NCBI RefSeq assembly: GCF_003334305.1
Contig: NZ_QOWS01000004.1
DNA length: 64,000 nucleotides
DNA from: Escherichia coli
Lineage (GTDB): Bacteria > Pseudomonadota > Gammaproteobacteria > Enterobacterales > Enterobacteriaceae
Direction: 5' to 3' (one strand)
Below the pieces are notes generated by a model that worked only from the letters and a program-made list of their open reading frames with translations, searched no databases and was not told where the DNA came from. Positions 14,684-37,830 of the stretch are shown here, piece by piece. Made by a program: the position numbers and the translations under genes. Numbering within the stretch: position 1 is the stretch's first letter; each line of letters begins with the position of its first letter.

Positions 14684-15052
14684 AATAAAAAAAGGGAGCA
14701 CTGTATTCACAGCGCTCCCGGTTCGTTTCGCAGCATTCCAGCTACTTTTGTTGCTCCCTGCTCATCCTTGACAACTTTTCCTCTGGCCTTGCGGCCAATC
14801 GTTCATCCTGAACTATTGCTTCCTGCTCACACCACCCCGATGTGATACTTCATCCTGAAGTGTCCCTGGCCTTCCTGACCCACCGAATCATCCTGACCGG
14901 TTCTCATTCTCCATCCTGGAGGTGTCCTTTAACGCGTCCTGCGTCATCCTCTTCGCTTCATCCAGAAGCCTTTCCCTGAAACACCATCCTGGTGTGTCCT
15001 GCAGAAGTGTCATCATCCTGATGTTCACTTCGTTGTCTGACTCCCTGTCGAC
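14684..15052 (-). ncRNA. csrB: CsrB small RNA (CsrA-sequestering sRNA)
   Basis: No long ORF. The plus strand carries at least 8 exact CATCCTG heptamers (CAGGATG on the minus strand) plus about 10 further TCCTG/GGA variants spaced ~15-25 nt apart. Minus-strand 5' end GTCGACAGGGAGTCAGACAACGAAG; 3' end is a GC hairpin (gggagcactgtattcacagcgctccc) followed by a U-run. Confidence 0.93.
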
Positions 15053-32178: not shown

Positions 32179-33096
32179 TTATTGTTCATAACGAAAGCGG
32201 AATTTTTCTTGTTCAGCAGCGGCTTTCGCCAGGATCCATTGGCGAAAGGCGGCTATTTTACCCAGTTCTGCCTGGCTGTCATGACAAACCAGATAAAAAG
32301 CGTTTTTACTGACCAGAACATCATTAAACGGGCAAACAAGACGTCCGGCTTCAATTTCAGATTGCGCCATCACGTTATTTGCCAGCGCCACTCCCTGCCC
32401 GTGAATAGCCGCTTGCAGCACCATGGCGCTATGACTAAAAATTGGCCCTTGCTGAACGTTGATATGATTTAACCCCAACTGTCGGGTATATGTCTGCCAG
32501 TCACGGCGTGACGCATCATGTAATAACGTATGTTTAGCCAGATCTTCCGGGGTCTTCAAGGGTTTTTCGCCTGTCAGCAGTAGCGGCGAACACACCGGCA
32601 ATAAATATTCGGCGTACAGTTTTTCCACCCGTAGCCCCGGCCAGTTGCCCCGACCATAAAATATCGCCACATCAACATCATCCGCCAGCTTATCTTCCTG
32701 ACGATCAACCGCCTGGATTCGAACGTCAATTCCCGGATAAGCTGAATTAAAGCTGGAAAGTCGCGGAACCAACCAATGAATGGCGAAACTGGGGAGTAAA
32801 CTGACCGTCAACGCCCCCTTGGCGCTACGGGCCTGGAGTTTACGCGTCGCTTCGGTTAATTGCGAAAATATCTCTTTGATATCGAGGAAATAGCTTTGCC
32901 CTTCCTCGGTCAGCAGGAGTGAACGATTACGGCGGCGGAACAGTTTTAGCCCCAAAAAATCCTCAAGAGACTTGATTTGATGACTTACTGCGGCCTGGGT
33001 CACAAAAAGCTCTTCTGCTGCGCGAGTGAAACTTAAATGGCGTGCTGCGGCATCAAAAACTCGTAAGGCATTTAGCGGTGGTAATCGTTTAGACAT
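32179..33096 (-). CDS. gcvA: LysR-family regulator of the glycine cleavage system, GcvA
   Basis: 305-aa ORF MSKRLPPLNALRVFDAAARHLSFTRAAEELFVTQAAVSHQIKSLE... with an N-terminal LysR HTH. Confidence 0.96.
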   Translation of the reverse strand: MSKRLPPLNALRVFDAAARHLSFTRAAEELFVTQAAVSHQIKSLEDFLGLKLFRRRNRSLLLTEEGQSYFLDIKEIFSQLTEATRKLQARSAKGALTVSLLPSFAIHWLVPRLSSFNSAYPGIDVRIQAVDRQEDKLADDVDVAIFYGRGNWPGLRVEKLYAEYLLPVCSPLLLTGEKPLKTPEDLAKHTLLHDASRRDWQTYTRQLGLNHINVQQGPIFSHSAMVLQAAIHGQGVALANNVMAQSEIEAGRLVCPFNDVLVSKNAFYLVCHDSQAELGKIAAFRQWILAKAAAEQEKFRFRYEQ

Positions 33097-33224
33097 GGCT
33101 TTTAAACTTTGATGTTAAATGAATTTAACAATTAGATCACACTATGTAACCTATTAGTTTTTTTAATCTGAGCCATTATAAATTGTCCGTTGAGCTTCTA
33201 CCAGCAAATACCTATAGTGGCGGC

Positions 33225-33430
33225 ACTTCCTGAGCCGGAACGAAAAGTTTTATCGGAATGCGTGTTCTGGTGAACTTTTGGCTTACGGTTGTGATGTTGT
33301 GTTGTTGTGTTTGCAATTGGTCTGCGATTCAGACCATGGTAGCAAAGCTACCTTTTTTCACTTCCTGTACATTTACCCTGTCTGTCCATAGTGATTAATG
33401 TAGCACCGCCTAATTGCGGTGCTTTTTTTT
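33225..33430 (+). ncRNA. gcvB: GcvB small regulatory RNA
   Basis: No ORF. Begins ACTTCCTGAGCCGGAACG, carries the GU-rich seed tract GTTGTGATGTTGTGTTGTTGTGTTTGC, and ends in the intrinsic terminator gcaccgcctaattgcggtgc + T8. It is divergent from gcvA, the canonical arrangement. Confidence 0.93.
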
Positions 33431-33446
33431 ACCTTGCGATCGCGAA

Positions 33447-33674
33447 TTACTGATCCAGTTCGACCATCTCTTTCACGTCAGTACGGTTGATCTGCTGTTT
33501 GTTGCCATTAGCGTCTTTATACGAAATCATACCGGTATCGTTATCAGTCTGTGGTTTGCCGTCAGAGACGATGGTACGTCCGTCATTGGTGTGCATCACA
33601 TAGTTCGAACCGGAACAGGCGCTCAGGGCAAAAGTCAGCATACAGGCAGAAATAATTGCGGCAGTCTTTTTCAT
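33447..33674 (-). CDS. ygdI: Small lipoprotein YgdI (DUF903)
   Basis: [79 protein letters not shown] with lipobox LSAC. The start is taken at the second Met; the ORF track gives 33677. Confidence 0.88.
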
Positions 33675-33865
33675 CATCTTCTCCTTAAAGCGATTAATAA
33701 ATCTTAATAGTATTGATTAACAGGCTAAAATTAACGCCTAACACTATTCAGCATATGTTACTTACGCGGCTTCGCCAGGATATCCAGATAATTCTGATGG
33801 TTAGCACTCTCCTTGTATCAAAGTGAATTTTGCGTCACGATCGGTGCATCAAGCCGAGGAGTACC

Positions 33866-36371: not shown

Positions 36372-36447
36372 AGCACCTCAGAATTAAAAAGGGTGAGGTT
36401 ATCCCTCACCCTGGCGTATCCGTAAAAACGGTATACAGAATAACACA

Positions 36448-37753: not shown

Positions 37754-37830
<77 letters not shown>

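Follow-up and report, generated by a model that had tools for sequence, protein, structure and literature searches.

The stretch of Escherichia coli DNA analysed here, 64,000 nucleotides long and hereafter called the window, carries the gene for the small regulatory RNA GcvB between gcvA and ygdI, together with a promoter and putative binding elements for the regulator GcvA. The features are set out below in the order of the plus strand, with nucleotide (nt) numbers counted from the first base of the RNA and negative numbers counted upstream from it.

32179-33096, minus strand: gcvA, the LysR-type activator of gcvB, divergent from it; a 305-aa ORF whose protein is identical to K-12 GcvA (b2808)
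33153-33167, no strand assigned: putative GcvA element IR1, ATTAGTTTTTTTAAT, of the form ATTA-n7-TAAT, centre at -65
33175-33189, no strand assigned: putative GcvA element IR2, ATTATAAATTGTCCG, a nearly invariant block, centre at -43
33190-33218, plus strand: predicted sigma-70 promoter of gcvB, from a promoter scan, with a -10 element conserved across Enterobacterales
33225-33430, plus strand: gcvB, the 206-nt Hfq-dependent small regulatory RNA GcvB, from RF00022, identity to b4443 and fold energy
33233-33283, plus strand: stem-loop 1 (SL1, nt 9-59), Rfam consensus structure
33287-33314, plus strand: R1 seed (nt 63-90), GU-rich, between SL1 and SL2, from a tract scan and the alignment, with its function taken from PMC3536696 and PMC9299463
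33318-33336, plus strand: stem-loop 2 (SL2, nt 94-112), Rfam structure
33338-33358, plus strand: stem-loop 3 (SL3, nt 114-128), the predicted internal terminator t1, GGTAGCAAAGCTACC followed by T6, from a terminator scan
33359-33374, plus strand: R2 conserved region (nt 135-150), CACTTCCTGTACATTT / CACUUCCUGUACAUUU, invariant or nearly so in 49 homologues
nt 145-177 of the RNA: stem-loop 4 (SL4), whose 23-nt loop holds R3, Rfam consensus structure
33378-33396, plus strand: R3 seed in the SL4 loop (nt 154-172), invariant or nearly so in 49 homologues
33402-33430, plus strand: stem-loop 5 (SL5, nt 178-199), the predicted terminator t2, AGCACCGC-CTAATT-GCGGTGCT and a U-tail, from a terminator scan
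33447-33674, minus strand: ygdI, encoding a DUF903 lipoprotein, convergent with gcvB and identical in protein to K-12 b2809; context only

The identity of the RNA gene is established by two matches. When the window was scanned with all Rfam families, positions 33225-33430 of the plus strand gave an end-to-end match to the GcvB family RF00022 (model positions 1-204 of 204), with a covariance-model score of 199 bits against a gathering score of 42 and an E value of 1.1e-46. The same stretch is identical at 206 of 206 nucleotides to gcvB (b4443) of strain MG1655, whose curated record lists 'ncRNA gcvB b4443, small regulatory RNA GcvB' at NC_000913.3 2942696-2942901, and the two ends coincide exactly. 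Moreover, the bases G156, G160 and C162 (33380, 33384 and 33386) match the R3 mutant numbering of Miyakoshi et al. (PMC9299463), and since the mutated positions land on G, G and C, the published numbering fits a start at 33225. It is thus virtually certain that 33225-33430 (plus strand) represents the gcvB gene on the chromosome of an E. coli strain, and nothing in the sequence speaks against this. The window sequence is the type sequence of the GcvB family, and, as far as the letters tell, the locus is an unaltered, already known and ordinary feature. An earlier note on this DNA had proposed a 206-nt small RNA, gcvB, at precisely the coordinates that the Rfam model matches; its reader had placed a known small RNA to the exact base from the sequence alone, and the interpretation given there is fully upheld.

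The gene occupies part of a larger gap. The earlier note had spoken of a 206-nt interval between gcvA and ygdI, and the figure holds for the gene inside the gap, whereas the gap itself measures 350 nt (33097-33446). The divergence from gcvA that it described is borne out, with gcvA on the minus strand and gcvB on the plus strand and 128 nt between the gcvA start and the first base of gcvB. At the other end, 16 nt lie between the last base of gcvB (33430) and the last base of ygdI (33447). The order of the neighbouring genes, rlmM-ygdD-gcvA, gcvB and ygdI-csdA-csdE, is common to the window and MG1655. Compared with MG1655, the entire 350-nt gap carries a single substitution, T for A at 33101, which lies 5 nt upstream of the gcvA ATG and at -124 from the gcvB start; the same T is present in strain 120899 (NZ_CP025916), a 100% match. 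A minor point concerns the start of ygdI, for which the mechanical ORF (33447-33677, minus strand) begins MMKKT and gives 76 aa, while the annotated start at 33674 lies one codon downstream, begins MKKT and gives 75 aa; the two differ trivially, in which of two start codons is taken.

Within the RNA, the most conspicuous element is the GU-rich tract GTTGTGATGTTGTGTTGTTGTGTTTGC at 33288-33314 (RNA nt 64-90), of which 93% is G or T. Nowhere else in the 64-kb window, on either strand, does a 27-mer hold at least 25 G or T, and the intact seed tract anticipated from the sequence is indeed there. The flanks of R1, GGTTGTGA and TGTTGTGTTTGC, show no variation among 49 homologues. Inside it the 8-mer TGTTGTGT is duplicated exactly and in tandem (33295-33302 and 33303-33310); both copies occur in homologues from Escherichia, Citrobacter, Enterobacter, Klebsiella and related genera, and a single copy in those from Yersinia, Serratia, Photorhabdus, Xenorhabdus, Edwardsiella, Pectobacterium and others. 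In the centroid fold, nt 71-93 are unpaired, that is, predicted to be single-stranded, and nt 63-64 and 67-70 join a weak long-range helix with nt 134-140. The whole RNA has a predicted minimum free energy of -62.1 kcal/mol (z = -3.63), and none of 200 dinucleotide shuffles folds as well.

The two terminators found by the terminator scan lie in the 3' half of the RNA. The t1 hairpin spans 33338-33352 and is followed by six T, and the t2 stem (33402-33423) has 8 pairs, 6 of them GC, before its T-run, in keeping with the canonical intrinsic terminator that had been described for the end of the gene. The t2 stem is invariant in the 49 homologues, and SL5/t2 is presumed from the literature to be the Hfq-binding module. 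Terminator t1 has been described for E. coli with a short form of about 130 nt, and the pair of predicted terminators agrees with the published description of RNAs of about 130 and 206 nt (PMC1557403).

To place these elements in an evolutionary frame, loci were collected from one genome per bacterial species with the pattern GGTTGTGATG-N40-70-CACTTCCTGTA, which spans R1 to R2. It returned at least 120 loci, nearly all of them named as Enterobacterales genera, and, among the matches listed, every one of the 109 Enterobacterales loci whose flank is long enough has a gcvA homologue divergently upstream. An alignment of 49 diverse Enterobacterales GcvB homologues, made with MAFFT, is invariant or nearly so at the 5' end, the base of SL1, the flanks of R1, R2, R3 and t2. 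The apex of SL1 has 46 distinct sequences among the 49 homologues; an apical hairpin is present in all 17 of the SL1 folds printed, and the folding energy of SL1 over the 49 homologues runs from -10.6 to -21.6 kcal/mol, with a mean of -16.7. Since a MAFFT alignment is not structure-aware in this variable apex, the Rfam structure was mapped onto the alignment and each SL1 was folded separately.

Mapped in this manner, 87.7% of the alignment cells form standard pairs, against 37-52% (maximum 52.4%) when the 3' partners are slid by 1-3 columns, a comparison in which the tested structure, being the Rfam model mapped onto the window sequence, is favoured over the slid controls. This bias leaves the compensatory changes in SL1 and SL2 unaffected. 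Compensatory change is seen at 13 pairs, and the observed covariation score was reached by none of 500 shuffles. The changes are concentrated in SL1, where 9 of 20 pairs show them, and in SL2, where 2 pairs show them and the share of paired cells is 91.8%. The stem of SL4 is the weakest (70.6% paired, no compensatory change). Folding de novo with RNAalifold on the MAFFT alignment recovered the base of SL1, SL2 and t2, with only 2 compensatory pairs, and mispaired the 3' end of R1 with SL3. Overall, covariation across the homologues supports the predicted family structure SL1-SL5, with SL4 alone weak; the weakness of SL4 and the partial recovery by RNAalifold touch the details of the fold and not the identity of the gene.

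A rival reading takes the region to encode a small protein. The mechanical ORF list contains a 46-codon ATG ORF inside gcvB (33258-33398, plus strand), whose 46-aa product reads MRVLVNFWLTVVMLCCCVCNWSAIQTMVAKLPFFTSCTFTLSVHSD, and on this reading the transcript would be a coding or dual-function RNA, which we consider extremely improbable. The 20 nt before the ATG (GAACGAAAAGTTTTATCGGA) hold no Shine-Dalgarno sequence, and the ATG lies at the apex of SL1, with the A and U in base pairs and the G as the first base of the loop. Of the 49 homologues only 24 retain the ATG, the longest ATG ORF varies among the 49 between 0 and 46 aa, and the conserved RNA carries indels whose lengths are not divisible by three, the 8-nt duplication in R1 among them, which would shift the frame. 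Further, PMC1557403 cites Urbanowski 2000 for translational fusions in which E. coli GcvB was not translated in vivo. With the ribosome-binding site missing, the ATG partly paired, the ORF unconserved and the published fusions negative, the small ORF was rejected as a coding sequence. That it is nevertheless translated under some condition, so that GcvB would be dual-function in E. coli and its closest relatives, is a proposition to which we give hardly any credence, and GcvB is treated in what follows as a non-coding regulatory RNA.

The region upstream of the RNA carries its own signature of constraint. The promoter scan places a -35 hexamer, TTGAGC, at 33190-33195 and, after a 17-nt spacer, a -10 hexamer, TATAGT, at 33213-33218, which ends 7 nt before the first base of the RNA. 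When the promoters of 49 diverse Enterobacterales loci were aligned, conservation was poor from the gcvA start codon to about -73. There follows a block from -72 to -31 in which most positions are invariant, ATTAGTTTTTTTAATC.GAG.CATTATAA.TTGTCC.TTGA, and then the -10 element.

Two putative GcvA elements lie in this block. IR1, ATTAGTTTTTTTAAT, fits the form T-N11-A and, read on the minus strand, contains CTAAT (33153-33157), and in the 49 Enterobacterales promoters all its positions are invariant except the eighth T (33164). IR2 (33175-33189) abuts the -35 hexamer and is the putative weaker, activation-proximal GcvA site. Published work gives the GcvA consensus as T-N11-A containing CTAAT (PMC3658693). 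GcvA protects 48 bp in the gcvA-gcvB intergenic region, and the protected DNA has both 5'-CTAAT-3' and 5'-ATTA-n7-TAAT-3', and in E. coli the two inverted repeats are placed at -65 and -43 relative to the start of gcvB (PMC5002191). GcvA sites had been suggested as something to look for in 33097-33224, and the elements centred at -65 and -43 lie there at the published positions. CTAAT itself occurs twice in this interval, on the minus strand at 33131-33135 and 33153-33157, against about 0.1 expected per 128 bp, an expectation derived from its 54 occurrences across the whole window. The distal copy (33131-33135, -94 to -90) was considered as an extra GcvA site and rejected, as it is unconserved outside close relatives. 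The sequence elements for the predicted GcvA control are thus present and under constraint.

A further reading would take the GU tract and hairpins as a chance or purely structural feature, for example a terminator region of ygdI, with no trans-acting RNA involved. It draws on the position of the t2 hairpin just downstream of the ygdI stop codon, ygdI ending on the opposite strand 16 nt past the 3' end of gcvB. Yet on the minus strand an A-run precedes the t2 hairpin and no T-run follows it, unlike a canonical ygdI terminator, and a role for t2 as a bidirectional terminator serving ygdI was rejected on that ground. Chance is likewise at odds with a covariance-model E value of 1e-46, with long stretches of the 206 nt being invariant across genera while the flanking intergenic sequence diverges, and with the conserved and correctly spaced promoter upstream of gcvB. 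Synteny, moreover, is with gcvA (in each of the 109 loci noted above, among the matches listed) and not with ygdI, and for K-12, whose sequence is identical, a plus-strand transcript of 206 nt is already on record in the literature. We therefore regard the chance or structural reading as vanishingly unlikely and retain that of a trans-acting small RNA gene.

A megablast search found 33097-33446 in all 5426 of 5426 complete E. coli genomes, in 5385 of them with at least 99% identity. Among the E. coli genomes, the gcvA-gcvB intergenic region was also seen once on a plasmid. In each of the 15 PGAP-annotated RefSeq records listed (15/15), no feature lies under the match, and an ncRNA row for gcvB was not found in the two PGAP records inspected in detail, including NZ_CP025916.1. 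Among the records inspected, gcvB is annotated only in the curated MG1655 record. The warning of the earlier note that ORF-based annotation easily misses the gene is thus upheld by the PGAP RefSeq records inspected, which lack a feature there. Because these records carry no gcvB feature, a scan relying on deposited annotation would see an 'empty' gap of 350 nt at the gcvB locus. Known since 2000, GcvB is among the best-characterised global small RNA regulators. As a discovery, the locus is of little weight, and the practical point is its annotation.

An exception in structure is found in NZ_AP042483.1, the bovine isolate E. coli OkiPb01677, in which an IS4-like element, ISVsa5, lies inside gcvB after about nt 125 (locus L124, 3254-4700). 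Since the insertion parts R1 from R2, R3 and t2, OkiPb01677 is probably a natural gcvB mutant.

For K-12, the 206-nt RNA, its control by GcvA and GcvR and its base-pairing mechanism have been shown by experiment (PMC1557403, PMC3658693, PMC9299463, PMC3536696), as has the Hfq-dependent repression of amino-acid and peptide transporter mRNAs (PMC9299463, PMC3536696, PMC3658693). GcvA activates gcvB at high glycine, and GcvA together with GcvR represses it when glycine is limiting (PMC3658693, PMC1557403, PMC3536696). The Hfq-dependent RNA acts on most of its targets through R1 and on others, phoP and lrp among them, through R3 (PMC9299463, PMC3536696), with a role for R2 that is perhaps limited to cycA, and more than 50 targets have been validated in E. 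coli (PMC9299463). The sponge RNA SroC pairs with SL1 and with SL4/R3 of GcvB, after which RNase E degrades GcvB (PMC9299463, PMC3536696).

The present analysis itself shows the identity, anatomy, synteny, conservation and structural covariation of the gene. As the RNA and promoter sequences are identical to those of K-12, the experimental results can be carried over to the gcvB gene of the window, and the following course of events may be proposed. Judging from the motifs and the literature, transcription would start at 33225 from a sigma-70 promoter dependent on the divergently encoded LysR-type protein GcvA, which would bind the inverted repeats at -65 and -43, activating when glycine is abundant and, with GcvR, repressing when it is scarce. 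Transcription would end at t1 or at t2, yielding RNAs of about 130 nt and 206 nt, respectively. The 206-nt RNA would then bind Hfq, and, as in the K-12 literature, R1 would pair with C/A-rich sequences at or upstream of ribosome-binding sites in dozens of mRNAs for amino-acid and peptide transport and metabolism, including dppA, oppA, livJ, gltI and cycA. R3 in the SL4 loop would play the same role for the other target set, which includes phoP and lrp. Pairing is expected to block translation and to promote decay by RNase E, and GcvB itself would be destroyed after pairing with SroC at SL1 and SL4.

Elsewhere in the window, a few departures from MG1655 and one further RNA gene were observed. 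At 37754-37830 (plus strand) there is one initiator tRNA-fMet (CAU) gene, where MG1655 has three in tandem (metZ, metW and metV; NC_000913 2947387-2947683), and the two extra 110-bp repeat units of K-12 at this locus are without a counterpart in the window. Between tcdA and mltA, at about 36393-36412, some 140-160 nt of MG1655 are missing, the flanking blastn segments abutting with a 20-nt overlap; the missing segment may be a REP-type intergenic repeat. A full-length CsrB small RNA lies at 14684-15043 on the minus strand (Rfam RF00018, 380 bits against a gathering score of 71).

Among known systems, the closest is gcvB of K-12 MG1655 (b4443), which has the same 206 nt, ends, neighbours, promoter and GcvA sites and shows no difference within the gene. 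The GcvB RNAs of Enterobacterales outside the Enterobacteriaceae, from Yersinia, Serratia, Photorhabdus, Xenorhabdus, Edwardsiella and others, share the layout of five hairpins, and with it the invariant core of R1, R2, R3, t2, the divergent gcvA, the GcvA box and the -10 element. They differ in having one TGTTGTGT unit in R1, whereas the window and its Enterobacteriaceae relatives have two in tandem, and in an SL1 apex of unrelated sequence that is still hairpin-forming.

A more distant parallel is offered by OxyS, an Hfq-dependent small RNA that, like GcvB, acts in trans by base pairing with mRNAs. The two are unrelated in sequence and govern other regulons, the signal being oxidative stress for OxyS and the availability of glycine and amino acids for GcvB. 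The arrangement of OxyS and oxyR is nonetheless the same, with the gene for a LysR-type regulator and its small RNA target diverging from a shared control region, and within it oxyR-oxyS belongs to the group with three inverted repeats and gcvA-gcvB to that with two (PMC5002191).
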